A stretch of 64,000 bases of DNA from a virus. Taxonomy: Duplodnaviria; Caudoviricetes. The notes under the pieces are model-generated. The model had not been told where the DNA came from. It made no database searches and worked only from the letters and a program-made list of their open reading frames with translations. Numbering within the stretch: position 1 is the first letter of the stretch; each line of letters starts with the position of its first letter. Shown piece after piece: positions 4,757 to 56,708 of the stretch. A program made the position numbers and the translations under genes. Location of the stretch: positions 42,511-106,510 of the IMG/VR virus record IMGVR_UViG_3300012979_000030. One strand, 5' to 3'.

Positions 4757-6442
4757 TTAATAAACTAATTCATCCATATCATATTCTGGTTCTTGATTTT
4801 TCAAAATTTTATCTTTTCTTGAAATATTTATAGTCATAACTTCTCTATCAATTTTATCAAAATCATTTTCTGATATCTTTCCACTTGTTATCATTAGTGG
4901 TTTAAATTTATCATAAAATTCATGTGTGTCAAGTGTTTTTTTTGCTTTTGAAATTATCATCCATAAACCTTTTTCTGTAAAGTCAAGAATAGGTATAAAT
5001 TGTTCTGGGTATTCCAATGCATTAATATGCATATATCTATTAACCACGTTTGCTACACCCTTTACATCACCATATGTTTTTAATATATCTTTGCAGATTG
5101 CAACTTTATTTTGTGAATTTTCCATATATGCATATATAATTTTATTAAATTCAATATTTTCTTTTATATCACTATTTTCACTTATTGTTTTTAACATTTT
5201 CATTCCACCATCAATACGGGACAATTCTTCATATGATGATGAAGATGTAATAAAATCCATAAATACAAAACTTTTATATAATGATGGATTTATATATGGA
5301 TATAATTTATATAATACATTAACTATATCTGAGTTACTAACTGTTCCACCATCCAATCTTCTTGTATAGACTAATCTTTTTAATGTTAATTCAGATGTAT
5401 TATATTTTGTATCTTCTGTTATTGTATCACCAAATTGAACCATAATTCTATATGGAATATACTTATAACAAATGTTGTTCAACATACTTATTTGTTTTTT
5501 TGGTTCTGTTTGATTTAATTCATATATTCGTTTACCTAATCTATCATTATTATACATTTTTTGTATAATTTGTTCTAATGGTTTTGGAGATTTTAAGAAT
5601 TTCATCAGAACCTTAGGATTTGATATAACATCTGAATATATTTTATTTAATTTCTCAGTGCTTAATAATTTATTTCTTTCTTGGGCATTAAACTTAAAAG
5701 ATGAAAGTTTACTATCATATGAATGCATTTTAACTTGTTCAATAAAATTATCCCTATCCAAACCATTGATTTCTTTTTCATCCAATGTATCAATTATCCA
5801 TTTTACAAATTCCCAAACACGGATATAGAATGATTTGATGACATTTTTATCACCATCATTCAAAAAGCCTCTTGGACCACGCCACTCTAATGTTTTATTT
5901 CTGTGAACATTTATCAATGAATATTTGTCTGTATTACACATATCAAATATTTTTTTAAAATCATTCATTTCAACTGCATATTTTAAAGTATCAAGATAAC
6001 TTGTATCACTCCAATATGATTCAAAATTATAATCACCAAAAAACTTCAAATTTCTTTTCATTTTATCATCTAATGATAATTTAGACATTAACCAAATAAC
6101 ATCATCAGCAGTTATTCCTGGATATGAAATATGATGATGAAATCCACAACTATCATTTACATAATATTCAGAGTCCAATGTTTCATCAAAAAAGTTAACT
6201 ATTTTATTAAATGTTGTTATATTCACAGGAAAAACAGGACTTGCATACTCAAATGTTGTATCATCATAATCATCACTATTAATTGATGAATCATCATGTA
6301 AGTCTCCACCATCACCAAAATATGATTTAAAAAATTCATTAATGGTTGAAATATCTTCTTCACCTTTCCATATGGCTTCTAATTCAAATCCCATTGTGAA
6401 TTCTGATACCAATTTTCTTTCTATTAACATTTCACTAAACAT
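4757..6442 (-). CDS. Putative amidoligase (COOH-NH2 ligase type 2 / Amidoligase_2) with variable C-terminal domain, paralog 1
   Basis: GFELE, HDDSSI, FEYASP, SCGFHHH, KY, TLEWRGPRGF. Confidence 0.8.
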   Translation of the reverse strand: MFSEMLIERKLVSEFTMGFELEAIWKGEEDISTINEFFKSYFGDGGDLHDDSSINSDDYDDTTFEYASPVFPVNITTFNKIVNFFDETLDSEYYVNDSCGFHHHISYPGITADDVIWLMSKLSLDDKMKRNLKFFGDYNFESYWSDTSYLDTLKYAVEMNDFKKIFDMCNTDKYSLINVHRNKTLEWRGPRGFLNDGDKNVIKSFYIRVWEFVKWIIDTLDEKEINGLDRDNFIEQVKMHSYDSKLSSFKFNAQERNKLLSTEKLNKIYSDVISNPKVLMKFLKSPKPLEQIIQKMYNNDRLGKRIYELNQTEPKKQISMLNNICYKYIPYRIMVQFGDTITEDTKYNTSELTLKRLVYTRRLDGGTVSNSDIVNVLYKLYPYINPSLYKSFVFMDFITSSSSYEELSRIDGGMKMLKTISENSDIKENIEFNKIIYAYMENSQNKVAICKDILKTYGDVKGVANVVNRYMHINALEYPEQFIPILDFTEKGLWMIISKAKKTLDTHEFYDKFKPLMITSGKISENDFDKIDREVMTINISRKDKILKNQEPEYDMDELVY

Positions 6443-6445
6443 TTT

Positions 6446-8200
6446 TTATTTCCTTATATATACACCATATTTTTCTAATTCTGTTATTTGCTCATCACTC
6501 AAAAATTCAACAACTGATGGTTCCCTCTTAATTATATTAAATAAATCTTTTACTGATGGTTTTCCTACATAAAATAAATATAAATCTTCACCAACTTTAT
6601 TAATATTATTCACAATCATAGAATTCCAGGTATTTTTTAAATTTGATTTACCAACGATTGATGTAATATCATTACATTTAACATCATACATACCCTTAAT
6701 TTGTAAATTATGTAAGATTGCCTGTTTTAATAACCAATAATATAATTTTGATTTTAATTCATCAGACATAATATCACCAAGTGTATTTGAATTATAGATA
6801 TAATAATTTATTTGGGTTAAATTTATATCACCAATTTTTAAACACAAATTAAATATTGATTTTTCTATCACTTGCAAATTTAATGGAAATTTACATTCAA
6901 CAAGTGTATTGAGCATTGACATTATCAATTTGTTCATATCTTTGATTTTATAAATTGAATTATATACTATTTCCTTATCAACAACATCTAAAACATTAGA
7001 CCTATAGCATTTTTTTAATATATATGGTATATTTTCTGAACAACTCATTGATACAAGTTTATTAATGAATGTTTTAACATCATAATTTTCTGCATCACCA
7101 ATAATTTCATAAAATGAATCTTCAACACTTAAAACAAAATTATATTTTTCATTTCCAATAATATTTTTTACCATGTTGTTTTCTTTAATAACACATTTAT
7201 ACAATATATCCTTATTTTTATTGCATTTTGATAAAAAGTTTTTTATTGAATTACTAGATAAACCACTCTTTTTATTTGTTTTAAATTTAATATCCTTAGA
7301 ACTATCATATGATTCATCATGTGTCAAAAATTCTAATGTTGGTTTTGATGGTGCTTTTTCAACTGCTTTTTCTAATTCTGCAAAAAACTCATCTTTTGGT
7401 GTTCCAATACCAACTAATTTATCAGAATCCATATATGTTTTTATTTTTCCAATCAATTTTATGAACAATTTATAAAAATTCTTAATTGAATCAGAAACAC
7501 CATCATTCATAAAATCCCTTGGACCTCTCCATTCCAATGTTCCTTGTGGGTGAATTCTAAATACTCTCCATTTTCTTGTCCCTAAATATGATAGTACCTC
7601 TACATAATCTCGTTCTCTTAATGCATCACCCAAACCTATAATGGACTCATATGATGCCCATTCATCACTATATAATGAATATCCATCCATTTTTCCAAAA
7701 TCATTCTTTAGTGTTGGTTCAGAGGCCATATTACAGTATATCCATACCATATCACGTTCTGTTAAACCTTTAAAATGTAAATGATGATGAAACCCACATG
7801 TTTTATTTGTATATACACCACTCTCTAATAATTCATATAATGTTTTTATAATAGCATTGAACCATATTGGTTTACATGGAATTATAGGACTCGAGTATTC
7901 AAATGAAATATCATTATAACTATAATCATCGGTGCTGACAGAAGAATCTTCATGACATCCATCACTACCAATCAAATCACCATCACCATAGTGTTTTAAT
8001 CTATTTGTAATATAGTCTTTTATATTATTTAAACGTGCCTCATCTACATCATCTTCATCATATACACCATATTCAATTTCATTATATATTTCACTGTCTT
8101 CTTTGATACATCCTTCTAATTCAAACCCCATTGTGAAATCAGATGTTAATAGTGTTTCATCTAATCTTTCTAATTGCTCTAATAGTTGATTTTTAGACAT
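6446..8200 (-). CDS. Putative amidoligase, paralog 2
   Basis: GFELE, HEDSSV, FEYSSP, TCGFHHH, RIHPQGTLEWRGPR. Confidence 0.8.
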   Translation of the reverse strand: MSKNQLLEQLERLDETLLTSDFTMGFELEGCIKEDSEIYNEIEYGVYDEDDVDEARLNNIKDYITNRLKHYGDGDLIGSDGCHEDSSVSTDDYSYNDISFEYSSPIIPCKPIWFNAIIKTLYELLESGVYTNKTCGFHHHLHFKGLTERDMVWIYCNMASEPTLKNDFGKMDGYSLYSDEWASYESIIGLGDALRERDYVEVLSYLGTRKWRVFRIHPQGTLEWRGPRDFMNDGVSDSIKNFYKLFIKLIGKIKTYMDSDKLVGIGTPKDEFFAELEKAVEKAPSKPTLEFLTHDESYDSSKDIKFKTNKKSGLSSNSIKNFLSKCNKNKDILYKCVIKENNMVKNIIGNEKYNFVLSVEDSFYEIIGDAENYDVKTFINKLVSMSCSENIPYILKKCYRSNVLDVVDKEIVYNSIYKIKDMNKLIMSMLNTLVECKFPLNLQVIEKSIFNLCLKIGDINLTQINYYIYNSNTLGDIMSDELKSKLYYWLLKQAILHNLQIKGMYDVKCNDITSIVGKSNLKNTWNSMIVNNINKVGEDLYLFYVGKPSVKDLFNIIKREPSVVEFLSDEQITELEKYGVYIRK

Positions 8201-8206
8201 ATAATT

Positions 8207-8243
8207 ATCCCCATAAATATTGTATAATAGTATTTATGGGGAT
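8207..8243 (-). promoter_or_regulatory. RBS-sequestering hairpin with a late-promoter-like motif in its 5' arm
   Basis: Minus strand reads ATCCCCATAAATA-11 nt-TATTTATGGGGAT-AATTAT-ATG, a perfect 13-bp stem. Confidence 0.7.
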
Positions 8244-8254
8244 TTATTCTTATA

Positions 8255-9205
8255 TTATTTGTTTAGAATGTTTTTAATTTCCACTAAACACGCCATCAAA
8301 TTCAAATCTTTAAATGCAACTGTTGGATGTTTATAAAGATATTCAGCAACCTTAACAATTATTTGTTCCCATTTATTTCTATCAACAGTAAATACATCTA
8401 ATTTGTTATATATTATTTTATATATGTTCTCAATCTCATCCTCATTGAAACTTGTAGCAATAAGTTTTTGAACATCATTACAATGCTTTCTATTATGAAC
8501 AAAATCTAAAATAGGTAGTAGTTTATCTAAGTTAGAAACTTCATATTCTTTTTTAAATTTACTTAATTCACCATTAATAACATTCTTATTAATATCATTA
8601 ATACATTTTCGCAAATCAGGATATGATAACTTAATATATTCAACAACATCTTCCATAGAATATTTAATATTCTCTTTTGTAAGAATATTCACAATTCTTG
8701 TTACAAATTGTTGTTGGTCAAGTTTTTGGAAACTATATGATTCACATCTTGAAAGAATTGCAGGTGTAACCTTATTAACATTATTAGTTGTGAAAATGAA
8801 TCTACACCATAATGAATACTTTTCCAATACATACTTTAATGAATCTTGTGCTTGTGCTGATAATCTTTCAAATTCTTCAATAATAACAACCTTAATTTTA
8901 TCATCTAATGATGGAACAGAAGCATATTCAATGATTCTTCTAGTATCATCAATACCTGTTTTATCAGAACCATTGATAGTAATGTAGTCGCTGATGTTTA
9001 ATTCATTTAGAATAACATTAATTGAAGATGATTTACCTGTTCCCGGAATCCCATATAATAAAATATGAGAATCAAATGAACCTTTTTCCTTCCATTGTTT
9101 TAACTTATCACCAAACTCTTTATTGGTAATAACTAAATCTTCAATTGTTTTTGGTCTATATTTTTCTGTCAATAATTCCATAATATTTTCCTTATAAAAC
9201 TTCAT
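8255..9205 (-). CDS. Sliding-clamp loader AAA+ subunit (T4 gp44 / RFC-small-like)
   Basis: EKYRP, GIPGTGKS, NGSD..GID, AQDSLK, ILSRC, YPDLRKCIN. Confidence 0.92.
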   Translation of the reverse strand: MKFYKENIMELLTEKYRPKTIEDLVITNKEFGDKLKQWKEKGSFDSHILLYGIPGTGKSSSINVILNELNISDYITINGSDKTGIDDTRRIIEYASVPSLDDKIKVVIIEEFERLSAQAQDSLKYVLEKYSLWCRFIFTTNNVNKVTPAILSRCESYSFQKLDQQQFVTRIVNILTKENIKYSMEDVVEYIKLSYPDLRKCINDINKNVINGELSKFKKEYEVSNLDKLLPILDFVHNRKHCNDVQKLIATSFNEDEIENIYKIIYNKLDVFTVDRNKWEQIIVKVAEYLYKHPTVAFKDLNLMACLVEIKNILNK

Positions 9206-9407
9206 CTAATGATTGGCATTTAATACCCTTTGGGCAATTTTTAGCAATATAATCACAACCTTTTTCATTTGTAATAATAAAAACCGAACCATTTTTATAT
9301 GGATATACATTGCTAATTGTTTTAGCATAATTAACTGCTTTTTTAGAAAAAAATGCTTTGATTGAACCAAAATTTGTTTTTTCAAATGTGATGTTGTATG
9401 TTGCCAT
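9192..9407 (-). CDS. Hypothetical protein
   Basis: AAGGA RBS; sigma70 promoter TTGACA-17-TATAAA at about 9435-9463. Confidence 0.7.
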   Translation of the reverse strand: MATYNITFEKTNFGSIKAFFSKKAVNYAKTISNVYPYKNGSVFIITNEKGCDYIAKNCPKGIKCQSLDEVL

Positions 9408-9466
9408 ATATTGTTCCTTTCTCTTGATATATTCTTTATATCATTTTTTGAAACCAATGTCAAGCA

Positions 9467-10390
9467 CTATTTTAACCCTTTAAACAAATATTTAATAACA
9501 TTGGCATTCCATCCATTACCACAAGCATTATATCGGTTTCCATCACTAATGTCAATGGTTTTTCCATCTTTCAACCCATATTTGGTGTAATTATCGGGTA
9601 ATGACTGACACCGTTCATATTCTATTGGTAACATTTTTCTGTTTCTATCACCTTGTCTAACTTTTTTATGAGTATAACCCCCATTAACACAAGTTAATGT
9701 ATAACATTTACTATTTAAATTACTGACTCTTTTACCCATTTTAAAACAATTAATTTTTAATGTACAGATTGGGTTGGCATCTTCACCATGATATTCATAA
9801 TCATACTTATACCAATATTTGTTTGGAACATTTTCTTCTGGTTCAACAATATCCTTTAACAATTCTGTTGATTTTTCAATTGGTTGTCCATCATTGGGAA
9901 TATTTGTCCAAAACAATCTCTTTCTTCTTTGTGCCGAAAAATCAGCAGCATCTAACATTATTGGTTCAACACCCATGAGTTCAGTAATAATGGTTTTATC
10001 AGATTCGGGCATACCATAATTGTTTTCTAATAAGAACTTAATATTAGGATTAACAGATTTTAAATGATTTAAGATTTCAACATATCTATAAAACAATCCA
10101 GATTTAGAACCCTTTAAACCTTCTCTTTCATTTTGTTGACCAACTCTAATAATAGAAAGGTCTGTACAAGGACTTCCACCAATTAATAAATCAATTGATT
10201 TCCAATCAATATCCCAATCTCTCCAATTATTAACATCACCTAATTGAATTGTATTTGGATAATTATATTGTGTAATAACAATAGCTGATTCTTCAATCTC
10301 ACTTGCATAATATGTTTCAACAGTTATGCCTAACTGATTTAAGCATAATTGTCCTGTTGAAATCCCATCAAATAAACTTAATACTTTCAT
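9467..10390 (-). CDS. C5-cytosine DNA methyltransferase
   Basis: SLFDGI (motif I), GGSPC (IV), LLEN (VI), QRRKRLFW (VIII), GNGW (X). Confidence 0.92.
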   Translation of the reverse strand: MKVLSLFDGISTGQLCLNQLGITVETYYASEIEESAIVITQYNYPNTIQLGDVNNWRDWDIDWKSIDLLIGGSPCTDLSIIRVGQQNEREGLKGSKSGLFYRYVEILNHLKSVNPNIKFLLENNYGMPESDKTIITELMGVEPIMLDAADFSAQRRKRLFWTNIPNDGQPIEKSTELLKDIVEPEENVPNKYWYKYDYEYHGEDANPICTLKINCFKMGKRVSNLNSKCYTLTCVNGGYTHKKVRQGDRNRKMLPIEYERCQSLPDNYTKYGLKDGKTIDISDGNRYNACGNGWNANVIKYLFKGLK

Positions 10391-12354
10391 TTTAATCCCT
10401 CAAAAATAAACTTAATAACCTCTGCTGTCCAACCATTACCAACACATTTAACTCTCTGTGTGTAACTAATTTCTTGTTTCTCACCATTTAAGATTCCATA
10501 TTTAGTATAATTATCAGGTAATGTTTGTAATCTTTCTGATTCCAATGCTGTTGGTTTATAGAATTGTCCATCAGGATATTTAATATTAGTTGCACCAGAG
10601 TTAGCAATAGATTGAGAACATGTTAATGTTTTAGATTTTTGTTCCAATGTTTTAACAGAACCCCATGCTTTCTTAAATGATAATGTTCCCTCTTTTTTAG
10701 CATACATTTTATCTGTAATGTTAAACTCTACCTTATCTTCAATTGGTTCAACAATATCTTTTAATGTCAGATTCTTATCTTCTAACTCACCACTAATTTC
10801 AATATTTGTCCAATACAATCTTTTTCTTCTTTGTGCTGAAACAATTGCTGAATCAATGAGAATTGGTTTTACACCTAATAAATCATTAAATGTTTGTTCC
10901 CATTCTTTTTTCATAACAACATTTTCTAATAAGAACTTAACATTTGGATTAACAGATTTAATATGGTTTAAAATTTCCAAATATCTATAAAACAATCCTG
11001 ATTCAGAACCTTCTAAACCTGTTCCATTCCCAGCATTACTTAAGTTTTGACAATTATGCACAACAACTCCATTGGCAGTATATGAATTATCTTCTTCTAC
11101 TTCCATATTATAAACAATTGTTTGTTTTTCTTCTGTTGTTATTGAAGTAATCTGTGACCATGAATAACTCATATCTTTGTCAAAAAACGACCTATCTTGT
11201 GGATGGGTATGTGTTTTAAATCTAATTTGATATGTATTATGTTGATTTACTTCTCTACCTTCAATAATATATTTGGATGGTCTAATAGTATATGTCATCC
11301 CAACAGGCACATTATACACTTCAGTAATTAATAACTTTAACTCATAGGCTAATTGCTTACTTATTGTTGTTATACTACAAAGACCATTTCTATTTTTTGG
11401 GTATGAACCATCAGCACTAATATATCCATCTAATAATGCTTTCTTTTTGTTTAATGGTAACCCCCATACATCTGGGTGAATACATTTATTAATAGCACCA
11501 ATCCCACATTTAGAAAGATAATCAAGTAATTCCATGGAACAAATTCTAAATTTATATGTTGTTCTTTCTTCTAAATAATTATAATTATATCCAAGGTTAT
11601 CCATTATCTGTTTAATTTCATTAAATTCAGATTTACCACAACATAATATCACTTTATACATATGACTATTTTTTCTATTTTTTCTTTTTGTTTTTTGAAT
11701 CCAACCATCTCCAATAAATCTTCCAACAAAATACCAAAAATCTTCACTATGGGTATCAGTATCAATGCCCAGATTTGTATTATAAGTAACTCCTAAATAG
11801 TGTTTCGTTTTATCCAAATCTTTTGCTTCCACCCATTGTGGTTCTTTATAATAACGAACTTTGGATTTTTTCTTCCATCCTTCTTTTGTTTTCATACCTT
11901 TGTCTTCATATTGGTAATATTTTTCTCTAGCATAGAATGGATGATTTGATGTTGTCGTAATATTATCAAAACCCATCCCTTTGATATTATACACATTATC
12001 AACCAATTTACCACCAACATTCAATACTTTTCTGTATCTACTATTATGTGTTAATACCATATCACCAACTTTTATTTCTTCAATTGGTTTCATACCCTTA
12101 TCCGTCATTACTAATGTACCAGCAACAAAACATGGACTCCCCCCAATAATCAAATCAATTGATGACCAATCAATATCCCAATCTTTCCAATTATTAACAT
12201 CACCCAACTGAATTGTATTTGGATAGTTATATTGAGTAATTGCAATAGCATACTTATCAATTTCTGATGCATAATATGTTTCTACATCAATTTCCAATTC
12301 TTTAAGACAATACTGTCCTGTTGAAATACCATCAAATAAACTAATTACTTTCAT
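10387..12354 (-). CDS. C5-cytosine DNA methyltransferase interrupted by an intein
   Basis: SLFDGI, GGSP|intein|CQNLS, LLENV, QRRKRLYW, GNGW. Confidence 0.92.
   Translation of the reverse strand: MKVISLFDGISTGQYCLKELEIDVETYYASEIDKYAIAITQYNYPNTIQLGDVNNWKDWDIDWSSIDLIIGGSPCFVAGTLVMTDKGMKPIEEIKVGDMVLTHNSRYRKVLNVGGKLVDNVYNIKGMGFDNITTTSNHPFYAREKYYQYEDKGMKTKEGWKKKSKVRYYKEPQWVEAKDLDKTKHYLGVTYNTNLGIDTDTHSEDFWYFVGRFIGDGWIQKTKRKNRKNSHMYKVILCCGKSEFNEIKQIMDNLGYNYNYLEERTTYKFRICSMELLDYLSKCGIGAINKCIHPDVWGLPLNKKKALLDGYISADGSYPKNRNGLCSITTISKQLAYELKLLITEVYNVPVGMTYTIRPSKYIIEGREVNQHNTYQIRFKTHTHPQDRSFFDKDMSYSWSQITSITTEEKQTIVYNMEVEEDNSYTANGVVVHNCQNLSNAGNGTGLEGSESGLFYRYLEILNHIKSVNPNVKFLLENVVMKKEWEQTFNDLLGVKPILIDSAIVSAQRRKRLYWTNIEISGELEDKNLTLKDIVEPIEDKVEFNITDKMYAKKEGTLSFKKAWGSVKTLEQKSKTLTCSQSIANSGATNIKYPDGQFYKPTALESERLQTLPDNYTKYGILNGEKQEISYTQRVKCVGNGWTAEVIKFIFEGLK
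11053..12132 (-). mobile_element. Intein (360 aa) with LAGLIDADG homing endonuclease
   Basis: Begins CFVAGTLV, block B TSNHPF, LAGLIDADG-like FVGRFIGDG and LLDGYISADG, ends YNMEVEEDNSYTANGVVVHN; +1 residue is Cys. Confidence 0.93.
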
Positions 12355-12384
12355 TTATACTCCTAACCAACTTTTGTTATATTT

Positions 12385-13491
12385 TTAACCAAATAAGTTT
12401 TTAAAAATTGCTTCTAACACATTTACAACTATTGAATTACCTGCTTGTTTATATTTTTGACAATTGGACATATTTTTAACTTTATCTATTTGTTCATCTT
12501 TCCAACCCATCAATCTCCAACACTCTTTTGGTGTTAATTTTCTAATTCTCAATGGGTTATTAGATACAACAGTTTTTAATAAATGTGGTGTTGATGCATG
12601 AGTTCCAGCAGCTATTGTTCTGCATATACCATCTTGATGTTGAATTAAATCTTGTTGATGTTTAGCATTAGATGATACTTCAATTATTTTATTTGTTTGT
12701 GGTTCAGCAATAGCACACACAGCACCATGATTTTCCTTAATAGTTGGTGCAATACCATTTATATCCATAACTCTACCGCATTCGTGTCCAGATGGTTTAT
12801 AATTACCCAATACTTTTATTCTTGGTTCTAATATTTTTTCTTTAATATTTTTTTCAACATCTTTCATAATTGGTTTCATTTTTTCATTATTTAAATAATA
12901 TCTTTCATCAACTGATTCTTCTAAAATGTCTTTCAATCTTAATGTTAGTTCTTGTGGTTCAGGAAATACATATGGTTTATGATCTCCTAAAATAGATACA
13001 CAAAATACTCTTTCTCTATTTTGTGGAATACCAAAATCTTTTGAATTAAGAACTTTCCAATAATTTGTATATCCCATTTCTTCTAACACTTTTAACCATT
13101 CTTCAAAAGATGGTAAGAATTTTTTACCAACAAGATTTTTTACATTCTCCATTAAAAGATACTTTGGTTTAACTTTTCTAAAAATCTTTTCACATTCCCA
13201 TAATAAAGAACTTCTTGAACCAGAATCTTTTTCTAATCCTTTTTGAAGACCAGACAAAGAAATATCTTGGCAGGGGAATGAATAAGTAATTAAATCCCAT
13301 TGATTTTCATATAAATCATCTTCATTAATTTGACTTATATCACCAAGATTTTCTGTATCTCCATGCAATTGGTTATAAACATTTATTGCATACTTATCAA
13401 TATCACATTGTGTAGATGTATGCTCTATACCAATATTTTTTAATGCTTGTGTTTGAGAACCAATCCCACTAAATAGTTCTAATACTTTCAT
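12385..13491 (-). CDS. C5-cytosine DNA methyltransferase
   Basis: ELFSGIG, SFPCQD, MENVKNL, PQNRERVF, LTPKECWRLMG, YKQAGNSI. Confidence 0.93.
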   Translation of the reverse strand: MKVLELFSGIGSQTQALKNIGIEHTSTQCDIDKYAINVYNQLHGDTENLGDISQINEDDLYENQWDLITYSFPCQDISLSGLQKGLEKDSGSRSSLLWECEKIFRKVKPKYLLMENVKNLVGKKFLPSFEEWLKVLEEMGYTNYWKVLNSKDFGIPQNRERVFCVSILGDHKPYVFPEPQELTLRLKDILEESVDERYYLNNEKMKPIMKDVEKNIKEKILEPRIKVLGNYKPSGHECGRVMDINGIAPTIKENHGAVCAIAEPQTNKIIEVSSNAKHQQDLIQHQDGICRTIAAGTHASTPHLLKTVVSNNPLRIRKLTPKECWRLMGWKDEQIDKVKNMSNCQKYKQAGNSIVVNVLEAIFKNLFG

Positions 13492-13556
13492 TTATACATA
13501 CTCCATATCTTATACCACAATATTACTATATAATCCTCATAATATCAAGTATAATT

Positions 13557-14360
13557 TTAATAATTACAAATAAAAACTTCTACTGATTCTTCCACATTAC
13601 TTTGTTTTTTTGCTTTATTATTAAAGGTTTCAATTCTATGCCAATTGAAATTCATAAGTTTTTTCAAATACTCATTAGCAACACCCTTATGAATTGCCAT
13701 ATTAGATAATCCAAATTTTACACCATTTTTATCTAAATCCAAAATAAAGTTATAAAGTTTTTCTTCTAATTCTTTACTCCAATAACAATTATATCCTGCT
13801 TCTGTAATAAGATATGGTGGATCAAGATATACAAAAGCATTATTTGGTATATACACAGTATTAAAACTTTGATTAGTGAACAATAATGAATCAAATGTTT
13901 TCATTCTTTCTTGGTATAATCTAAGTTTTTCAACAGTATTATCATTGATACATCTTTTACCAAAAGTTTGATTAAACTTAAATTGTTTATTAAATCTCAT
14001 CATATTATTAGTACAAGATGAACACAATACAAAGAATTTATAAGGGTCAGGATTTTCATTATATTCTGCTCTTAACTTATTATAACCATCTTGGTCATCC
14101 TTTGATACAGAATATTCTTTACACTTTTCAAGGATTTCATCTAATGATTTAGTGTTCAATTCTTTATAAAATCCCATTAAATCTGTAATAATATCATTAG
14201 CAATTATATGTTTAAATGATGAGTTCATAAAAACACTTCCACCACCACAAAATAAATCAACCAATGTATCACAATCTTTTGGGAAATGTGAATACAATTC
14301 TTCTAATTCAGGATACTTTGTTCCAGTATAATTAAATGGTGATTTAATATAATTATTCAT
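13557..14360 (-). CDS. Dam-family (D12, alpha class) N6-adenine DNA methyltransferase
   Basis: SPFNYTGTK, DLFCGGGSV, RFNKQFKFN, YLDPPY, EVFICNY (T4 Dam-like). Confidence 0.9.
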   Translation of the reverse strand: MNNYIKSPFNYTGTKYPELEELYSHFPKDCDTLVDLFCGGGSVFMNSSFKHIIANDIITDLMGFYKELNTKSLDEILEKCKEYSVSKDDQDGYNKLRAEYNENPDPYKFFVLCSSCTNNMMRFNKQFKFNQTFGKRCINDNTVEKLRLYQERMKTFDSLLFTNQSFNTVYIPNNAFVYLDPPYLITEAGYNCYWSKELEEKLYNFILDLDKNGVKFGLSNMAIHKGVANEYLKKLMNFNWHRIETFNNKAKKQSNVEESVEVFICNY

Positions 14361-15162
14361 TTATTCTATCCTCTGCTATGTTAAAATAATTTGTATCTAA
14401 TTCAATACCTATGAAATTTCTATTTAATTTTTTGCATGCTACACCTGTTGTTCCTGAACCCATTGTGAAATCCAATACAGTATCTCCCTCGTTAGTATAA
14501 GTTTTAATGAGATATTCCATAAGAGCTATAGGTTTTTGTGTTGGGTGTAGATTTGTATTGATTTCTTTGTTAATTTTTAAAACAGATTTAGGATAACGAT
14601 AACCATCATCTGCATTTCTAATTCGCTTTAAATCTATTCCAATCAATTCTTTGTTTGTGGTAGGATTGTTAATAGTTTTTCTTCTATCAACCTTACCATA
14701 TCTATCATAATCTTTAGTTTCAAATACTTCTTTTAATTGTTTTTTATCCATATTTTCTATTTCAGAAAATTCCAAAACTTTATATTTTTGTGGATTATAT
14801 TTATGAGTACCATTTGAAAAGACTGATATTAACTCGTGATATTTAAGAGGAGCATTTTTTGCACCCATAAAATTAGCTGCCTTTTGTTTTTCCCAAACCC
14901 AATCATACTTGAAATTCTTAATATTAGAACATCTTAATATACTACTAAATGGTTCACTACCAAACAAACAAATAACACCATTGTCTTTAATTAGTTTATT
15001 ACAACAATCCCACATCTCATCAAAAGGAATAACACTATCCCACTTACAAGCAGTTGTTCCATATGGTGGGTCAGTAATTATGGCATCAACTTTTGTCCCA
15101 CATTTAATTAGTTGTTCCATAATTTCTAAACAATCTCCGTTATATAAACTAATTTGACTCAT
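14353..15162 (-). CDS. N6/N4 DNA methyltransferase (beta class)
   Basis: GDCLE, TDPPY, HPTQKP, LDFTMGSGTT, FIGIE. Confidence 0.92.
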   Translation of the reverse strand: MSQISLYNGDCLEIMEQLIKCGTKVDAIITDPPYGTTACKWDSVIPFDEMWDCCNKLIKDNGVICLFGSEPFSSILRCSNIKNFKYDWVWEKQKAANFMGAKNAPLKYHELISVFSNGTHKYNPQKYKVLEFSEIENMDKKQLKEVFETKDYDRYGKVDRRKTINNPTTNKELIGIDLKRIRNADDGYRYPKSVLKINKEINTNLHPTQKPIALMEYLIKTYTNEGDTVLDFTMGSGTTGVACKKLNRNFIGIELDTNYFNIAEDRINE

Positions 15163-15889: not shown

Positions 15890-15890
15890 T

Positions 15891-42826: not shown

Positions 42827-43291
42827 ATGAAAAGAGCACCTGAATTGAGTATTAATGAGAGATTTATTTTACAATATATTATTGACATTACTTCAAAAGG
42901 TAAATTGTTTTACAGATCAGATGAAACAATTTCAAATCTATTAGATGTTGATAAACGAACAGTTGCTCGTATGTTTTCAAAAATGATTACAAATGGATAT
43001 TTAATGGTTGGTGAAGGAAACAAAAAACTTATTATGTATACTGGTAAGGAATTTGTTAGATTACCAATTTATTCTAACTATAAATCATTAAAAGCAAATA
43101 CAGTAATTAGAGAGTCAAAAATGTTGAAGAATACAATAACTAGTTTACAGACACAAAATTCAATTTTAATCAAACGTATTGATGATTTGACTAATAAGGT
43201 TGATTACTTAAATGAAGTTAATAAGGCATTACAACAAGAGAGAGATAACTTAATTATCACTATTGAAGACTTACATAGAGAAATTGGTTAG
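42827..43291 (+). CDS. Winged-HTH DNA-binding protein with C-terminal coiled coil (initiator-like)
   Basis: FYRSDETISNLLDVDKRTVARMFSKM..NGYL; heptad C-terminus; TTGACA at 42758. Confidence 0.7.
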   Translation: MKRAPELSINERFILQYIIDITSKGKLFYRSDETISNLLDVDKRTVARMFSKMITNGYLMVGEGNKKLIMYTGKEFVRLPIYSNYKSLKANTVIRESKMLKNTITSLQTQNSILIKRIDDLTNKVDYLNEVNKALQQERDNLIITIEDLHREIG

Positions 43292-49643: not shown

Positions 49644-49653
49644 GAACCTTTTT

Positions 49654-50520
49654 TTATTTTATATCCTTAATTGAACCTCTCCCTTTATGTAGATTATCAT
49701 CAGGATTATATGCAAATTTTACAGATGAACCCTTGGGTCTTGAATAATATGTTTTATCTTTATTAATATTATATCTACCTTGACCTACAATAAACACCAT
49801 ACCGGTTTTATCACCAATTTTTATTTTTGATGAATCAGCATATGCTTTATTTGTTGCAATTTCTTCAACTTTATTAGAATTTTGTTCTTTAAAGAAAATG
49901 GAATCCTGGTTGAATATTTTCCCAAGTCTTACTGCTTGTTCTTTTGATATTTTTGGAATGAAGAAACTGTTTTCTTCTGAATCTCTATCCTCTGGATTAA
50001 CTCTTGGTTGTCCTAATTCATCAAATCCACCTCGTGTTTTAACATATCCCCTTAATCCCCATTTATTTAATAACAATTCAATTTGTTTTGTTCTTCTGTT
50101 ATTAAATGCTTTTTTATCTTGTTCATTTTTGAATGATGATGTATTTCGTTCTGCTGAAATATTTGCAAATGAATCTTTAGTATTATCTAAATGTTGGTTG
50201 AATCTTGATGCTTTTGTTTCATCTAATTCATTTGATGATTCTAATTCTTTCACTTTCTCTTTCCAATATTTAAGATTTCTTTCTGCTCTTGGGATTGATC
50301 CATTTGAGAAACCAAAATCATCATACTCTGCTAATAATAATTCATATTCCCAAGCACTAACTTGATCTTTTGCATATTGAAGTGTTATTTTTTCTTCTTG
50401 TTCATCTAATACCTCAACATCATCAATGTGTTCATTGAATTCTGTTAATATGTTGTAAAATTGTTCATTTGAACATTCTATTATTTTTGTAATATTATTT
50501 GTTGATATTCTTGCTTTCAT
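49654..50520 (-). CDS. Protein with C-terminal SAM-lyase-like (T3 SAMase/DUF3293-like) domain
   Basis: ISAER...N.RR...GGF.E...EENSF...LG..FNQDSIF; acidic N-terminal extension. Confidence 0.55.
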   Translation of the reverse strand: MKARISTNNITKIIECSNEQFYNILTEFNEHIDDVEVLDEQEEKITLQYAKDQVSAWEYELLLAEYDDFGFSNGSIPRAERNLKYWKEKVKELESSNELDETKASRFNQHLDNTKDSFANISAERNTSSFKNEQDKKAFNNRRTKQIELLLNKWGLRGYVKTRGGFDELGQPRVNPEDRDSEENSFFIPKISKEQAVRLGKIFNQDSIFFKEQNSNKVEEIATNKAYADSSKIKIGDKTGMVFIVGQGRYNINKDKTYYSRPKGSSVKFAYNPDDNLHKGRGSIKDIK

Positions 50521-52072
50521 TTGTTTCCTCATTTAATTTTTTAACAACATCTTTTGCAATACTTCTTAATATTTTTAATGATGTTGATTCTTTCTTTTCA
50601 TCATTGCTTTTTGGTTTATAGTCGTCTGGTTTGACCCATTTTTTATATGGATTTTCATCTTTTTCTAAAGAACGATTTATTCTTTGTTGTGTGTTTAAAA
50701 ATGCAAACCCATTTAAGTTTGTGATTCCAGGATGACCACCACTTGTTTTTAAAATAATCTCAGATATTGGTAGAGAGAATCTGTTTAAAAATTTAACAAT
50801 TTTTGATTTTAATTGTAATTGTTCTTGTGTGTCATCATCTTTTGGTGTAATTTCTGATGGTTTTAGATTCATACATTTCTCTATATTCATTTGTAATCTT
50901 TCATTTACATCATAAGTTTTGTTAAACAATGACATAAACTCATTATAGTCAAAACCTAATGCTAATTCTTCTCTTTCCTTGGATACATTTTCTTCCATTG
51001 TTTTTTTAATTGCCAATAATGATATATCATATTTGTCTTTGTTTAATAATGGAACATATTTGTTTTTAAAAATATCATCAATAACTAAATTTCCTAAATG
51101 TATACCATCATTTTTTGTTTCTTTATTCCAATTGTTTTTTGATACTTGCATCATACCAATTGAATCCCAAATCATGATAAAATATTTTGCATCTGGATAA
51201 TTTTTGAAAGCAGTATAACGGTCATATGAACCTGTTTTCATCATATTACCACCACCAATCTGAACAATTGTATTACCAATTAATGCATTTTTACCATATG
51301 ATAATTGCTCAATAGTATCAATGTCTGCATTTTGTATTTGTTTATCTTTTTGAGAATCTGCATAATAATCTGAATTTTTTTGTAATTGTAATATATCTAC
51401 CCAACCCTTATCACCATTTGAAATATGCTCTTTAATAATACTCAATGCATTTCTATACATTGAATATAATGATGGTGATGATGTCATAATAATGGTTTCT
51501 AAGAAATCTGGTTTATTTTTGTATGCTAATAGAACCTTATTAACTACCATACCAAATCTTAAATGGTTTTGTATTTTGTTTCTGTCTTTATTCCATTTAA
51601 ATATGTAATTTTTTAATTCATCAATACCAATTCCTTCATCTGAATAACCAGCAGAATCAACCATATCTATTACTTTTATATCTTCTTGTGAAAAAATTGA
51701 TGATGGTGAAATTATTGATGAAATTGTGCCAGCATTTGACTTTGAATGGGAAAAGTGACTGGATTGATTATTATATGAAATCTGTGAATCATGGTGATCT
51801 GTATGTATTTTCATAAATGGTTTACCATGTGCAAAATCAACTAAAACAGGTAATATATCATTGCTTGGTTTTAGAATTGCATATTCCATACCACCATATT
51901 GTATTCTTTCAACAGAAACAACCTTAATTCCATTTTTTTCAAGGTAATGTTTCATTGCAACAGCACTACATACACCATCCATATCAATATGAAAATATAT
52001 TTTTGCCTTATTATACTCTTTTGCTATTGAATTTATATTTCGAATACCTGATTCATACAAATCTAATTTCAT
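50495..52072 (-). CDS. DHH-family phosphoesterase
   Basis: FHIDMDG, LVDF, TDHHD, D.VDSA, SGGHPGI. Confidence 0.82.
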   Translation of the reverse strand: MKLDLYESGIRNINSIAKEYNKAKIYFHIDMDGVCSAVAMKHYLEKNGIKVVSVERIQYGGMEYAILKPSNDILPVLVDFAHGKPFMKIHTDHHDSQISYNNQSSHFSHSKSNAGTISSIISPSSIFSQEDIKVIDMVDSAGYSDEGIGIDELKNYIFKWNKDRNKIQNHLRFGMVVNKVLLAYKNKPDFLETIIMTSSPSLYSMYRNALSIIKEHISNGDKGWVDILQLQKNSDYYADSQKDKQIQNADIDTIEQLSYGKNALIGNTIVQIGGGNMMKTGSYDRYTAFKNYPDAKYFIMIWDSIGMMQVSKNNWNKETKNDGIHLGNLVIDDIFKNKYVPLLNKDKYDISLLAIKKTMEENVSKEREELALGFDYNEFMSLFNKTYDVNERLQMNIEKCMNLKPSEITPKDDDTQEQLQLKSKIVKFLNRFSLPISEIILKTSGGHPGITNLNGFAFLNTQQRINRSLEKDENPYKKWVKPDDYKPKSNDEKKESTSLKILRSIAKDVVKKLNEETNESKNINK

Positions 52073-52153: not shown

Positions 52154-52161
52154 TATAAATA
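52154..52161 (+). promoter_or_regulatory. T4-type late promoter motif
   Basis: TATAAATA about 30 nt before ATG 52191. Confidence 0.6.
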
Positions 52162-52190
52162 ATAATATATTATTATTGTATTGGTGTGTT

Positions 52191-53633
52191 ATGGAAAAAC
52201 AAGTATTGAATGAAAAGTATTTGCATAGTGATGTAACATTTGGTTTTGAATTGGAAGCAAATGTTTATTATGATTATGTCCCACTTGATTACGATTCACA
52301 TGTATGGGATGATTATATAAATTACAATATTAATAACCCATCACAATTTGAAAATTTGGGGGAATTTGTTGATTTTTTTATAGATGATTCATATGATTTT
52401 CTTAATAATGATCCACAGTCAAGACATTTGATTGATGATACTAAAATGTATGATAATGTTAAGAAAAAAATTGAAAAATATTTTCCAAAATCAGCACCTT
52501 GGATAATAAATTATTCTGATAAAATTGAATATGATGGATCATTAGCAGCAAATGGTTTTGAATGGCCATCACACACCATGAAATTTACACCAGATGCAAT
52601 TGCTCATTGTATTCATTTTTTAAGTAATTTAGATGAGGAACATATTTATGTTGATGATACATGTGGGTTTCATACACATATATCATTTCCAAATTTTACA
52701 CTAGATGATGTGAAATGGATTGTTTTAAATATTGCATTAAATGATGAATATATAAATGAATTCACATCAATGGTATACAATGACTACAAATTTGATTTTA
52801 TTGATTATTATGCAAAAGAAACATTTTTTAGTGATATTAGAACTGCTTTTAATGAAAAAAACTTCAGCAAACTATCAGAGTTGTTAGATGATGAAAAGTA
52901 TAGGGTATTGAGAATTCACCCACAAGGTACATTGGAATGGAGGGGTCCAAGAGGATTTTTGAATGAAGAAGAGGATAAGAAATTAATCAAACAATTTTTT
53001 GTAAAGTTATTTAAGGTTGTAAATATTATATCTGATATATTAAAATCAAATTATATTGGTGATTATGATAAAAACACAATATTAGAACTTTTAAACACAA
53101 ATGATATGCCATTTGGTAAGACACCATCCAGATATAAAGATTTTATTTTTAAATTACAAGATAACCCCAAAAAATTATACTCCTTAAAAGATTCACCATT
53201 AAGTTTTATATTCAAAATAATTAAAAATAATGAACATAGTACAATGATATTGTCAAAATTATTGTATAGATTAATTGTTATGGAGAATAAACAAGTCCCA
53301 ACAAATATATTAGCAATGTTCATAATGTGTGATGATATATTTTCTGTAAAACAACTCAATGATATTATTAAACATTTAAAACAACCATTACCAATTAAGG
53401 AAATGATACAGTGTAATAGATGGTATAATTATACCGAGGAATTGCTAATTATACAACTAATCCGTTTTTTAGAATCATATTCTATTGATGACTGTTTGAA
53501 TGTTATTAATAATTATAATGGTAATGAAAAACTATTTGTTGATTGTTTTAATAAAATGTGGTATCTTCGTTGTAAATCAGAAATGCCAAAAATAATTAAA
53601 AATACATTAGAAAATAAACTGAATAAAAAATGA
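52191..53633 (+). CDS. Putative amidoligase, paralog 3
   Basis: MEKQVLNE..., GFELE, YDGSL, FEWPS, TCGFHTH, KYRVLRIHPQGTLEWRGPRGF. Confidence 0.8.
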   Translation: MEKQVLNEKYLHSDVTFGFELEANVYYDYVPLDYDSHVWDDYINYNINNPSQFENLGEFVDFFIDDSYDFLNNDPQSRHLIDDTKMYDNVKKKIEKYFPKSAPWIINYSDKIEYDGSLAANGFEWPSHTMKFTPDAIAHCIHFLSNLDEEHIYVDDTCGFHTHISFPNFTLDDVKWIVLNIALNDEYINEFTSMVYNDYKFDFIDYYAKETFFSDIRTAFNEKNFSKLSELLDDEKYRVLRIHPQGTLEWRGPRGFLNEEEDKKLIKQFFVKLFKVVNIISDILKSNYIGDYDKNTILELLNTNDMPFGKTPSRYKDFIFKLQDNPKKLYSLKDSPLSFIFKIIKNNEHSTMILSKLLYRLIVMENKQVPTNILAMFIMCDDIFSVKQLNDIIKHLKQPLPIKEMIQCNRWYNYTEELLIIQLIRFLESYSIDDCLNVINNYNGNEKLFVDCFNKMWYLRCKSEMPKIIKNTLENKLNKK

Positions 53634-53711
53634 TTAAATTTGTCTAATAATATCACTTGACATTTAGAATAAAATGTAGTATTTTCTTATCATGTGATAG
53701 GAGAATGCATA

Positions 53712-55295
53712 ATGGGAACAAATTTAAAAACAGATTTTTTTGTTGGATTTGAATTAGAAGCTTTTGCATATATATCTGATTTTATAGATTTAGATAATTA
53801 TGATTTTGAAGAAAATGTTTGTTGTAATTATTTAAATGATTACAACTATGAACCTGATGAGGGGGAATATAATCCATTGGAAGAATTTTATAATAATATA
53901 AGAAACTTCTTTAAAAGAGAATTTGGATTATCTGGGAATGTTCATTATGATGGTTCTGTTAAAGGTTTCAAAGATGGTTATAATGGATTTGAATGGTCAT
54001 CAAATCCAATGAGAGTTACACCTCATAATATGAATTGTATAAAGACAATGTTAAAAAAATTAAAATATGACAATATACACATTAATGACACATGTGGGTT
54101 TCATACACATTTTTCAAATAAAAACATAACAGAACAAGATGCAATGTGGATATTAATGGTTATATCAATGAATGATAATTTTGTTAAGGAAATTACAGAA
54201 TTTGAATATTTAGATAAAAATGATTATGAATTGTTTGGTAGTGTCAAACATGTTAAATTTAGTAATGATAGATATGCTGATAAAAATTTTTTAACATTAT
54301 TAAAAAATGCAATTAATGAAAAAAAATATTTAATGTTGGCACACTTGTTAAATGATGAAAAGTATAGAGTGTTAAGAATTCATCCACAGGGTACATTGGA
54401 ATGGCGTGGTCCAAGAGGTTTCATAGAATCCGATAATGGTGTTGATTCATATATTAAGAAAGTATACAATATTATTGATATATTTCAATATGCAATTGAA
54501 TGTAAAACACTAAATGGTATTTCTAAAAAAGAGTGGATGGATAATATATATGTGAATTATGTTTCTGATGGAAATAGATGTGATTTACCATTAATTCTAT
54601 CAGAACGTCAGATAAAAAATAATAAATTTGGTATTGTCTCATTTGGTAACAATAATTATGATACATTTTATAGTGGTTATAATTGTCACAGACATAGATA
54701 CAATGATCCATGTAATTTGGTTTCAAATAAAATCATTGATTGTCCAAGAATATTGGTTGAGGATTCATCATTGCATACAAAACTTAATAGAATTTGTAAT
54801 AATTTAAATATTAAAAATAAGTTGAGATATGTAATTGAAAGTATAAATGCTTGTGGAATAACAATACCTCTAAATGTTCAGTGGTTTATGATATTAAATA
54901 ATCCAACATTATTACCATATGTAACAAGAGATTTATGGAAACATTTGAGTGTTGAACGGTTGATTCAAATTATTAGAGATAATGGTTTTAGAATTGAAAC
55001 CGATAATAAAAAGAAAATGATTGATTATATAATTGAACAATTGCACAAGTATATTGATATATCTAGTGTTTTATATATTTTAACATCATTATGTGAAATT
55101 AATGGTAATTGGGTTTATGATTATATATACAGTAAAAAGGATATTATTTTCGAAAAATTGAATTTATATTATAATGAAGTTACAGAGATATATGGGAATA
55201 AAATTAAAATAGATTCATCAAAAGATTTTATATGCTTCTTGTTATATGTCCAACAGAATGAGGATTTGTTACAACCGGTATTTGTCCAAAAATAA
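53712..55295 (+). CDS. Putative amidoligase, paralog 4
   Basis: GFELE, HYDGSV, FEWSS, TCGFHTH, KYRVLRIHPQGTLEWRGPRGF; AGGAG RBS; TTGACA at 53657. Confidence 0.8.
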   Translation: MGTNLKTDFFVGFELEAFAYISDFIDLDNYDFEENVCCNYLNDYNYEPDEGEYNPLEEFYNNIRNFFKREFGLSGNVHYDGSVKGFKDGYNGFEWSSNPMRVTPHNMNCIKTMLKKLKYDNIHINDTCGFHTHFSNKNITEQDAMWILMVISMNDNFVKEITEFEYLDKNDYELFGSVKHVKFSNDRYADKNFLTLLKNAINEKKYLMLAHLLNDEKYRVLRIHPQGTLEWRGPRGFIESDNGVDSYIKKVYNIIDIFQYAIECKTLNGISKKEWMDNIYVNYVSDGNRCDLPLILSERQIKNNKFGIVSFGNNNYDTFYSGYNCHRHRYNDPCNLVSNKIIDCPRILVEDSSLHTKLNRICNNLNIKNKLRYVIESINACGITIPLNVQWFMILNNPTLLPYVTRDLWKHLSVERLIQIIRDNGFRIETDNKKKMIDYIIEQLHKYIDISSVLYILTSLCEINGNWVYDYIYSKKDIIFEKLNLYYNEVTEIYGNKIKIDSSKDFICFLLYVQQNEDLLQPVFVQK

Positions 55296-55298
55296 CGC

Positions 55299-55327
55299 TT
55301 GACAATCTTAAATTATTGATGTATAGT
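55299..55327 (+). promoter_or_regulatory. sigma70-type early promoter
   Basis: TTGACA-17 bp-TATAGT. Confidence 0.8.
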
Positions 55328-55355
55328 GATGTTGTAAAAACGAAAGGAACAAAAC

Positions 55356-56708
55356 ATGGTAAAACATTTAAAATCAATATTTAAAATTGGGTTTGAATTA
55401 GAAGGAAATGTGGATTCAAGAGTTAATGATAGAAATACATTAACTACCATATTAGATAATCTTTTGGGTGGAACCGGTGAAATGCATTATGATGGTTCTA
55501 TCAGAAGAACTAATGGAACAGATGTTACATTTGAGTATGCTAGTCCCGTTATTGATTATACACCATCAAATATTAATATGGTTATAAAATGTTTAGATAA
55601 ATTACCAGAATTGGGTGTAACAACAAATAGATCCTGTGGTTTTCATACCCATATTTCTTTTCCATCTATTAGTGTTGAAGACACAATTTGGTTTATTTTC
55701 TGGATGTGTGCCAACAATGAATATAAAAAGTTTAAAAAATTGGGAAGAACTAATTTATATGGTATGACATATGCAAAATTTTCAATTTTTGAATCTATAT
55801 CAAATAGAATCTATGCGGGTGATTCTATGCATAATATCTTGCGTGATATTGTCACAAATGAAAAATATCGTGCGATTAGAATTCACCCACAAGGAACAAT
55901 AGAGTGGAGAGGTCCAAGAACATTCTTAAATACACCAACACACAAAAAAACTGTTTCATTTTTCAAAAAATTGGATTTGTTTATTTCTTCATTCATTAGA
56001 AGTATTGAGGAAACTTCTGTGGTTGTTTTGGATAAAGAGTATAAAAAGAAAGATGTTTTGGATATTGCAAAAAATTATTTAGGATATGTGTCATTTAAGA
56101 GTAATAAAAAACAAACATTTTATGAAAAAATTATGTCAAATCCTACAATATTAGATAAAATGTCATACAAAGATTTGAAGAAAAAAACAGAGGAAATTAA
56201 AAGAGCATTTAATAGAGGGTTTAATGTTAGTGTGTCTGATTTAAAATCAAAATCATTGTTTAAATGGGTGGTTGATAATGAATTAATCAGTGATGCTATA
56301 CATGTGTTTGATATTAATGTGATTTTGGATGGTGCTAATGAATTATATGATAGAAAAAAATTATATAATGTATTGAAAACATATTGGAAAAAACACCTTA
56401 AATATACTGATATCATTCTTAAAAAGATTGAAATGTGGAATGAAAGTGGATTATATAAAAACACAATTAATCTATTCATAAATGACATCTTATCAACTTG
56501 CTCTGTTTTGAGTCATCAATTTAGATTTTTTGCAACACCAAAGTGGTTGAAACTTCTTACACTAGAACAAAATAAATCTTTGTGTGAACGCATAAATCAA
56601 AAAATAACTGATGTCAAAGATGATATTTGGAATTCGGATTCTTATTTTATGAATATTGAACTTAATAAAATAAAAGATGATGTTATGTTTTTTATTTGTA
56701 AAAAATAA
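55356..56708 (+). CDS. Putative amidoligase, paralog 5
   Basis: GFELE, HYDGSI, FEYASP, SCGFHTH, KYRAIRIHPQGTIEWRGPR. Confidence 0.8.
   Translation: MVKHLKSIFKIGFELEGNVDSRVNDRNTLTTILDNLLGGTGEMHYDGSIRRTNGTDVTFEYASPVIDYTPSNINMVIKCLDKLPELGVTTNRSCGFHTHISFPSISVEDTIWFIFWMCANNEYKKFKKLGRTNLYGMTYAKFSIFESISNRIYAGDSMHNILRDIVTNEKYRAIRIHPQGTIEWRGPRTFLNTPTHKKTVSFFKKLDLFISSFIRSIEETSVVVLDKEYKKKDVLDIAKNYLGYVSFKSNKKQTFYEKIMSNPTILDKMSYKDLKKKTEEIKRAFNRGFNVSVSDLKSKSLFKWVVDNELISDAIHVFDINVILDGANELYDRKKLYNVLKTYWKKHLKYTDIILKKIEMWNESGLYKNTINLFINDILSTCSVLSHQFRFFATPKWLKLLTLEQNKSLCERINQKITDVKDDIWNSDSYFMNIELNKIKDDVMFFICKK

Follow-up and report, generated by a model that had tools for sequence, protein, structure and literature searches.

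Leader-bearing and leaderless amidoligase paralogs with different promoter types in a giant phage of gut or rumen

Why should one phage carry five copies of the same enzyme core, and why should three of the copies begin with a short leader that the other two lack? The question is raised by a 64,000-nucleotide stretch of viral DNA (Caudoviricetes; IMG/VR record IMGVR_UViG_3300012979_000030, positions 42,511 to 106,510), referred to here as the window, which forms the final 64 kb of a 106.5-kb contig and contains five amidoligase genes, A1 to A5, in two clusters. The source is a giant phage of gut or rumen. Judged from sequence comparisons and structure models, A1 to A5 descend from old duplications within a phage-specific Amidoligase_2 branch of carboxylate-amine ligases with a glutamine synthetase (GS) fold. 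The reading toward which we lean, based on sequence, models and analogy with T4, divides them into two classes: leader-bearing forms that would be packaged in the head, trimmed by a protease of the T4 gp21 type and ejected into the host, and leaderless forms that would be made early, all of them amide ligases directed to their targets by their C-terminal domains. The five genes, with protein lengths in amino acids (aa) and distances in nucleotides (nt), are:

4757..6442, minus strand: A1, 561 aa; leader MFSEMLIE; begins 3 nt past the A2 stop codon; belongs to an L-x-E clade of 9 tree rows with support 99
6446..8200, minus strand: A2, 584 aa; 15-residue leader ending in LDE; core at residues 15-265 (GS fold) and C-terminal domain at residues 313-584 (alpha-solenoid)
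52191..53633, plus strand: A3, 480 aa; leader MEKQVLNE
53712..55295, plus strand: A4, 527 aa; leaderless (MGTNLK...); belongs to a leaderless clade of 15 tree rows with support 99
55356..56708, plus strand: A5, 450 aa; leaderless (MVKHLK...); belongs to a leaderless clade of 40 tree rows with support 99

The original prediction had recognized five genes at these positions, and a hidden Markov model (HMM) made from the five cores retrieves exactly five copies in the window. The shared N-terminal core is ~220-260 aa long. Compared pairwise, the cores match at BLAST E 1e-26 to 1e-46 with ~28-37% identity, and all five match A5 at E 1e-30 or better. The motifs GFELE, DxS, FE, CGFHxH and (L/I)EWRGPR are invariant across the five cores and also in sets of 44 and 35 homologues, and the candidate catalytic residues (E14, E16, D46, S48, E60, H97, H99, E183, R185 and R188 in A5 numbering) are invariant in the 44 homologues. 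An HMM search against Pfam family PF12224 (Amidoligase_2; gathering cut-off 22 bits), which the original prediction had proposed as a check, places A5 above the cut-off at 25.0 bits, while A3 and A4 (~18 bits) and A1 (15 bits) fall below it and A2 gives no match. Many homologues carry a precomputed PF12224 match, and a search with the five-core profile extends to the short canonical forms of Amidoligase_2. A search of PHROGs returned a single weak match, phrog_2443, to A3 only.

Structure prediction places the cores on the GS catalytic domain. The AlphaFold models of A5 and A2 have mean confidence scores (pLDDT) of 89.6 and 87.5, respectively. The A5 model superimposes on the catalytic domain of glutamine synthetase (2ojw) with a Z score of 9.9 over 180 residues (root-mean-square deviation 3.9), and the A2 model on the same domain with a Z score of 9.5 over 190 residues (root-mean-square deviation 4.2). 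Foldseek gives a probability of 1.0 both to GS and to YbdK/GCS2, and the closest viral models in BFVD are phage proteins named 'amidoligase enzyme'. The catalytic-domain fold of the GS/GCS2 (YbdK)/PafA-Dop superfamily is thus common to the A2 and A5 models, although A1-A5 differ from GS in lacking its N-terminal beta-grasp domain. A sequence search of the five-core profile against solved structures gave no match at E up to 10, and PafA is absent from the fold-match lists, though it may be distantly related; with the PafA/Dop Pup ligases the five proteins have only the GS-type superfold in common, and by sequence they fall outside that group. PafA does illustrate that a GS-type fold can ligate onto proteins. 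Because the Pfam match, the invariant motifs, the GS-fold models and the amidoligase-named viral models point the same way, the predicted identity of the cores as COOH-NH2 ligases with the GS fold is sound, and on this point PF12224 and the fold matches uphold the original prediction. Each protein is probably a monomer in which a single-domain core is followed by an unrelated helical tail.

The leaders described in the original prediction (MFSEMLIE in A1, one ending in ERLDE in A2 and MEKQVLNE in A3) are present, and A4 and A5 begin directly at the core. In each of the three leaders the glutamate lies exactly 10 residues ahead of the G in GFELE; A4 and A5 start at position -11. The presence of L-x-E in three of five paralogs proves nothing alone, because [LI]xE occurs within residues 2-20 in 31 of the 116 genes of the contig (27%). 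The significance of the motif comes instead from its conservation at a fixed position throughout the family. A GFELE motif is recognizable in 205 homologues, 154 of which have at least 13 residues before it; 129 of these (84%) have E at position -10 and 135 (88%) have L or I at position -12. The values are 84% and 87% for the 153 homologues with at least 14 residues before GFELE. Positions -12 and -10 are as strongly conserved as core positions -7 and -3, and upstream of -13 the sequence varies freely. Such a propeptide would span 5-27 residues, most often 6-9. Approximately 50 homologues start at -11 or -12 without the motif and have K, R or N at those positions. In the A2 model, residues 1-14 are the sole stretch with pLDDT below 50 and are modelled as disordered, and the alignments to the GS fold begin at residue 15.

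A FastTree tree was built from 201 cores; its leaderless members group into two clades, those of A4 and A5, with support of 99 each, and only about three changes between the leader and leaderless classes are needed among the 201 rows. Based on this clade structure, the five paralogs represent five old lineages and the split between the two classes is ancient.

The two classes also differ in what lies upstream of them. The elements that flank the two gene clusters are:

8207..8243, strand not assigned: hairpin with a 17-bp stem between the clamp-loader gene and A2, the minus-strand arm of which contains CATAAATA
8231-8238, minus strand: CATAAATA in the hairpin arm, 30 nt upstream of the A2 ATG
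4690..4723, minus strand: terminator-like hairpin 3' of A1, overlapping the kinase-phosphatase promoter at 4748-4720
4748-4720, minus strand: sigma70-type promoter, a perfect TTGACA-17-TATAAT, upstream of the kinase-phosphatase gene
52154..52161, plus strand: TATAAATA, a T4-late-type motif 29 nt upstream of the A3 ATG
53657..53685, plus strand: sigma70-type promoter TTGACA-17-TATTTT ahead of A4, intergenic, matching the consensus at 10 of 12 positions
8 nt upstream of the A4 ATG, plus strand: ribosome-binding site AGGAGA
55299..55327, plus strand: sigma70-type promoter TTGACA-17-TATAGT ahead of A5, intergenic, matching the consensus at 11 of 12 positions
56721..56748, plus strand: terminator with a 12-bp stem that ends the A3-A4-A5 array, convergent with a 563-aa virion-protein-like gene

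The TTGACA promoters that had been assigned to A4 and A5 are real and intergenic. The companion claim, that the leader forms sit behind (T/C)ATAAATA motifs, stands for A3; upstream of A2 it is the C variant, within a hairpin, and A1 lacks such a motif. A1, which begins 3 nt past the A2 stop codon, is probably co-transcribed with A2. The two seem to form a transcription unit of their own, set among early or replication genes and flanked by the hairpin at 8207-8243 and the terminator-like hairpin at 4723-4690.

The association of leader class with promoter type extends across the family, as the original prediction of a two-class split would have it. A survey took in 73 non-redundant members of the family for which IMG/VR or metagenome loci supplied the upstream DNA; a strict sigma70 pattern was defined as TTGAC[AT]-N16-18-TAnnnT and ATAAATA was counted 12-60 nt before the ATG. 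The strict sigma70 pattern precedes none of 50 leader-bearing copies, 28 of which have ATAAATA about 30 nt upstream; most of the others sit directly behind another gene, as A1 does behind A2. ATAAATA is missing from all 15 leaderless copies; 12 of them fit the strict sigma70 pattern, and the remaining three combine TTGACA with a less stringent -10 box. The association is significant for both the sigma70 pattern (Fisher p 1e-10) and ATAAATA (p 5e-5).

The motif is not abundant in the window, where YATAAATA occurs 22 times against an expectation of 40 +/- 6.7. An argument from overall enrichment was accordingly rejected, the count being below chance, and the signal lies only in position and orientation. 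On the contig, 8 of 19 TATAAATA sites fall in intergenic DNA, which makes up 7% of the sequence, and all eight are upstream of genes. Seven of the eight are followed on the same strand by a called gene start at a distance of 21-137 nt (six of them at 21-56 nt), including that of the tail sheath gene, and the eighth, at 62583, lies 24 nt ahead of an open-ended open reading frame (ORF) at 62614 that the gene caller omitted. Depletion of YATAAATA overall together with the intergenic placement of 8 of 19 TATAAATA sites suggests selection against the motif within genes. A sigma70 consensus scan as a whole did not rise above shuffled sequences and was set aside, only the top-scoring intergenic sites being used; such sites precede the helicase gene, the NrdD operon, the kinase-phosphatase gene and A5, and the A4 site was found separately.

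The C-terminal domains are 200-330 aa long, all-helical and solenoid-like, with one per paralog. They had been described as mutually dissimilar, and BLAST among the five C-terminal halves indeed finds no similarity (best E 0.056). By hhalign, however, the domains of A1 and A2 are distant homologues (probability 96%, E 2e-9, 250 columns), and profile-profile comparison hints at a possible shared linker right after the core (A1-A4 85%, A1-A3 79%). By sequence comparison, then, the domains are diversified but not all unrelated. Each has its own set of orthologues, which tracks the clade of the core, and these sets do not overlap after iteration. Searches of the Atlas and fold searches with the C-terminal domains gave generic helical-repeat matches only (PPR-like, template modelling score 0.46; solenoids, Z score 7-8). 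That these domains pick macromolecular targets is a guess.

The family is widespread among uncultured phages. A profile search of 1.84 billion representatives retrieved 255 proteins at E <1e-30 and 878 at E <0.001, nearly all of which have the core at the N-terminus and a length of 350-640 aa. Members come from phage contigs as long as 287 kb in metagenomes of rumen, human gut and other origin, and one Vibrio phage has a weak match (E 7e-4). In the closer relatives, A3-like, A4-like and A5-like genes stand consecutively, flanked by a DHH-family gene and the terminase gene. The contig itself is 41% complete (CheckV), and the window has a G+C content of ~27% and no tRNA genes. Its tail sheath is 32% identical to sheaths of jumbo myoviruses of the Rak2/CBB/GAP32 type, and other genes in the window encode a split large terminase, GroEL, the anaerobic NrdD, a helicase, a clamp loader and a long array of DNA methyltransferases. 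On the tail sheath identity the source lineage is a distant Rak2/CBB-like jumbo myovirus and not a T-even phage.

Does a phage of this lineage possess the T4-type machinery that packaging would call for? Four relatives that carry the family were searched (G001-G004, 110-287 kb, one with terminal repeats). A Peptidase_S77 protease of the T4 gp21 type is found in all four (E 1e-24 to 1e-26; in G002 at 73807-74235), as are a gp23-type major capsid protein (E 1e-69), the gene for which adjoins that of the protease, and a weak gp55-like match (E ~1e-5). The gene upstream of the relatives' protease is preceded by TATAAATA. The relatives' capsid proteins start with MTTNIEKSVLLLE or MANIILE followed by a conserved block, and these capsid leaders share the design of the amidoligase leaders in that they vary in length and end in (L/I)-L-E. 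The analogy with T4 that the original prediction drew is supported by the relatives' gp21-type protease, gp55-like factor and gp23-type capsid proteins with LLE or ILE leaders, and by the occurrence of TATAAATA at a head gene as well as at the sheath gene. The contig itself, a fragment, lacks the protease, the factor and the capsid gene.

The capsid proteins of L147 (G002), L148 (G003) and L150 (G004) are only ~400 aa long, with leaders of 7-13 aa ending in LLE or ILE. The capsid propeptide of T4 gp23, in comparison, is 65 aa long. A ClpP encoded beside the terminase gene in relative L004 was considered as a prohead protease but discarded, since it is a complete ClpP (E 1e-87) and an S77 protease is encoded separately.

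The proposed course of events combines these observations with what is known of T4. By analogy with the fold, the core would convert a carboxylate to an acyl-phosphate at the expense of ATP, and attack by an amine would then produce an amide; the solenoid-like C-terminal domain most likely selects a macromolecular target. A1-A3 would be transcribed from T4-late-type (N)ATAAATA promoters, and their leader would serve as a short, disordered propeptide that targets the prohead core until a gp21-type prohead protease trims the protein after the leader glutamate. The trimmed forms would be packaged and, one inferential step further on, ejected with the DNA into the next host, as are T4 Alt and the T4 internal proteins. 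A4 and A5 begin where the trimmed forms would begin and would be made early from host sigma70-type promoters, as are T4 ModA and ModB. The broadest form of the proposal is that a widespread jumbo phage lineage of gut and rumen injects capsid-loaded amide ligases, which would attach an amino acid, an amine or a peptide to host macromolecules through an amide bond before phage genes are expressed, the leaderless paralogs widening the range of targets; we offer it tentatively, as possible rather than probable.

Two T4 systems serve as models. T4 Alt loses six N-terminal residues (ITE-6), gp21 cuts propeptides after Glu, and every internal protein of the T4 head relies on an N-terminal capsid targeting sequence (PMC5694885, PMC3012670). 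Alt enters the host by injection, and its paralogs ModA and ModB do not (PMC5512222). The likeness to Alt, ModA and ModB is that of one family with a late, packaged, gp21-trimmed member and early cytoplasmic paralogs (PMC5694885, PMC5512222), to which an L-x-E leader with a late-type motif and a leaderless start with a sigma70-type promoter would correspond here. The chemistry is unrelated, the enzymes here being predicted amide ligases of the GS fold and not ADP-ribosyltransferases. With T4 IPI-III the likeness is one of otherwise diverse cargo whose only common feature is a short N-terminal leader, cut off after Glu by the prohead protease (PMC3012670). The candidate cargo here differs in being a large enzyme family and not a set of small inhibitor proteins, and its leader, unlike that of IPI-III, varies in both length and sequence except for (L/I)-x-E.

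Several observations weigh against this proposal. No S77 protease, late factor or capsid gene was found on the 106.5-kb contig, which is 41% complete, and the relatives that do have a protease, a capsid gene and a late factor carry a single amidoligase copy with a core identity of ~34-36%. Megablast and tblastn searches with the region and with A5 found no match among 50,697 phage records, and the cultured Rak2-like phages CBB and GAP32 are without the amidoligase family. The promoter association reflects few independent events, because the leaderless class consists of only two clades. Upstream of the A2-A1 pair the ATAAATA-type motif lies within a 17-bp hairpin, with none for A1 itself, and no terminator was found between A3 and A4/A5, so that late transcription starting at the A3 promoter may continue into A4 and A5. 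Target recognition is only a guess because the matches of the C-terminal domains are to generic solenoids (Z score 7-8). Finally, the conserved L-x-E could be a structural or regulatory element instead of a cleavage site.

The last point is the basis of an alternative in which there is only a temporal split: all five proteins would be cytoplasmic enzymes, and L-x-E would be an uncleaved structural or regulatory element of the late forms with no role in packaging. The promoter classes alone would account for early and late forms, the leader is very short, no protease gene was found on the contig and [LI]xE is common near the N-termini of its genes (27%), all of which this explanation accommodates. 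It is harder to square with a motif that keeps a fixed distance from the core in ~85% of the 153 leader homologues even as leader length varies from 5 to 27 residues. Two whole clades with intact core motifs moreover do without the motif, which the fold therefore does not require; the leader comes out as disordered in the A2 model, and the relatives' capsid proteins bear a similar leader. We regard the temporal split by itself as unlikely. The evidence for packaging (the leaders, the promoters and the capsid leaders) would serve equally well if the leader forms stayed in the particle and, as it matured, modified proteins of the head or core or else condensing ligands, without ejection. A sealed head, however, gives an ATP-dependent ligase little supply of substrate, the leaderless early paralogs with their intact core argue for cytoplasmic targets, and T4-type internal proteins that bear leaders are ejected (PMC3012670), so that action confined to the particle seems very improbable.

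A biosynthetic role, in which the amidoligases build or decorate a small molecule, a cell-wall component or a hypermodified DNA base, has been suggested for the Amidoligase_2 genes of LUZ24-like phages and of thymidine-hypermodification clusters. The LUZ24-type early module consists of an amidoligase, a GATase and an ATP-grasp enzyme (PMC3890496), and in viromes amidoligase and amidotransferase genes co-occur with thymidine-hypermodification genes (PMC8989533). The original prediction that no GATase partner accompanies A1-A5 agrees with HMM searches in which PF13230 (GATase_4), PF13522 (GATase_6) and PF06094 (GGACT/AIG2) had no match in the contig, itself 41% complete, or in any of the four relatives of 110-287 kb, while controls matched. 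A search with PF14395 (COOH-NH2_lig) likewise returned nothing in the contig or G001-G004, yet its control also matched nothing. Five paralogs with differing large solenoids fit macromolecular targets better than a biosynthetic pathway, the DNA-modification genes of the window are ordinary methyltransferases, and a late, leader-bearing class is hard to reconcile with metabolism. A biosynthetic role is thus improbable for these genes, though it is not quite as remote as action confined to the particle.

Compared with other phage Amidoligase_2 proteins, such as ORF23 of LUZ24-like phages and the many virome proteins named 'amidoligase enzyme', A1-A5 have the homologous core, the fold and the motifs in common. 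They differ in that no GATase, ATP-grasp or AIG2 gene was found beside them, in adding an alpha-solenoid C-terminal domain of 200-330 aa, and in being multi-copy, with leader and leaderless classes behind different promoters. As far as the literature searched extends, there is no earlier description of such a partner-free, solenoid-bearing, two-class arrangement. Amidoligase_2 genes are frequent in phages and carry that name in annotations, and to our knowledge no function has been assigned to them. The two-class proposal would supply a family-wide marker, (L/I)-x-E at -12/-10, and, to go with it, a promoter code by which candidate enzymes delivered in the virion could be told from early cytoplasmic ones; each of the paralog-specific solenoids should then bind a different target. 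If the proposal is true, amide ligation would join the short list of phage-injected chemistries for host takeover or disarming, beside the ADP-ribosylation by Alt, and there would be a simple sequence rule for recognizing packaged cargo in uncultured jumbo phages of the T4 superfamily.

The (L/I)-x-E rule appears to flag further genes of the window. Leaders ending in (L/I/T)-x-E are found in five other genes, all on the minus strand: 40294-40977 (MKTLLHLTE), 41012-41515 (MKLSDYIME), 43288-44025 (MTLLQE), 44061-44837 (MNTNIIE) and 50495-52072 (MKLDLYE). The genes at 44061 and 50495 have an upstream ATAAATA; otherwise, these five genes were covered by Pfam and PHROG scans only. Judging by their N-termini, they may belong to one set of protease-trimmed head cargo.

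The gene at 50495-52072 is also one of a pair beside the A3-A4-A5 array. It encodes a DHH-family ORF of 525 aa and overlaps by 38 nt with a same-strand DUF3293 ORF of 292 aa at 49654-50532 (minus strand). In relative L004 one 921-aa gene (770-3535) has DHH and DUF3293 matches along with a weak match to S-AdoMet lyase, and by this comparison the DHH/DUF3293 pair could be a split or frameshifted protein of the polyvalent type.

Elsewhere in the window, a head-to-tail run of methyltransferase genes occupies 9467-19536 on the minus strand, and PHROGs confirm two of its members. The methyltransferase gene at 10387-12354 contains an inserted segment that matches ribonucleotide-reductase-like or intein-like profiles. 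For the large terminase, only the N-terminal ATPase ORF (58533-59642, plus strand; 369 aa) is present in the window; in relative L004 the C-terminal terminase nuclease is a separate gene with faint intein matches. An ORF resembling a homing or HNH endonuclease (62614-63999, plus strand) lies downstream of the tail sheath gene, at the end of the window. Genes for RNA repair repeatedly adjoin the amidoligase family, in that a polynucleotide kinase-phosphatase gene (3466-4701, minus strand) lies directly downstream of A1 and genes for a CCA-adding enzyme and an RNA ligase (7614-9931) lie just upstream of the A5 orthologue in relative L004.

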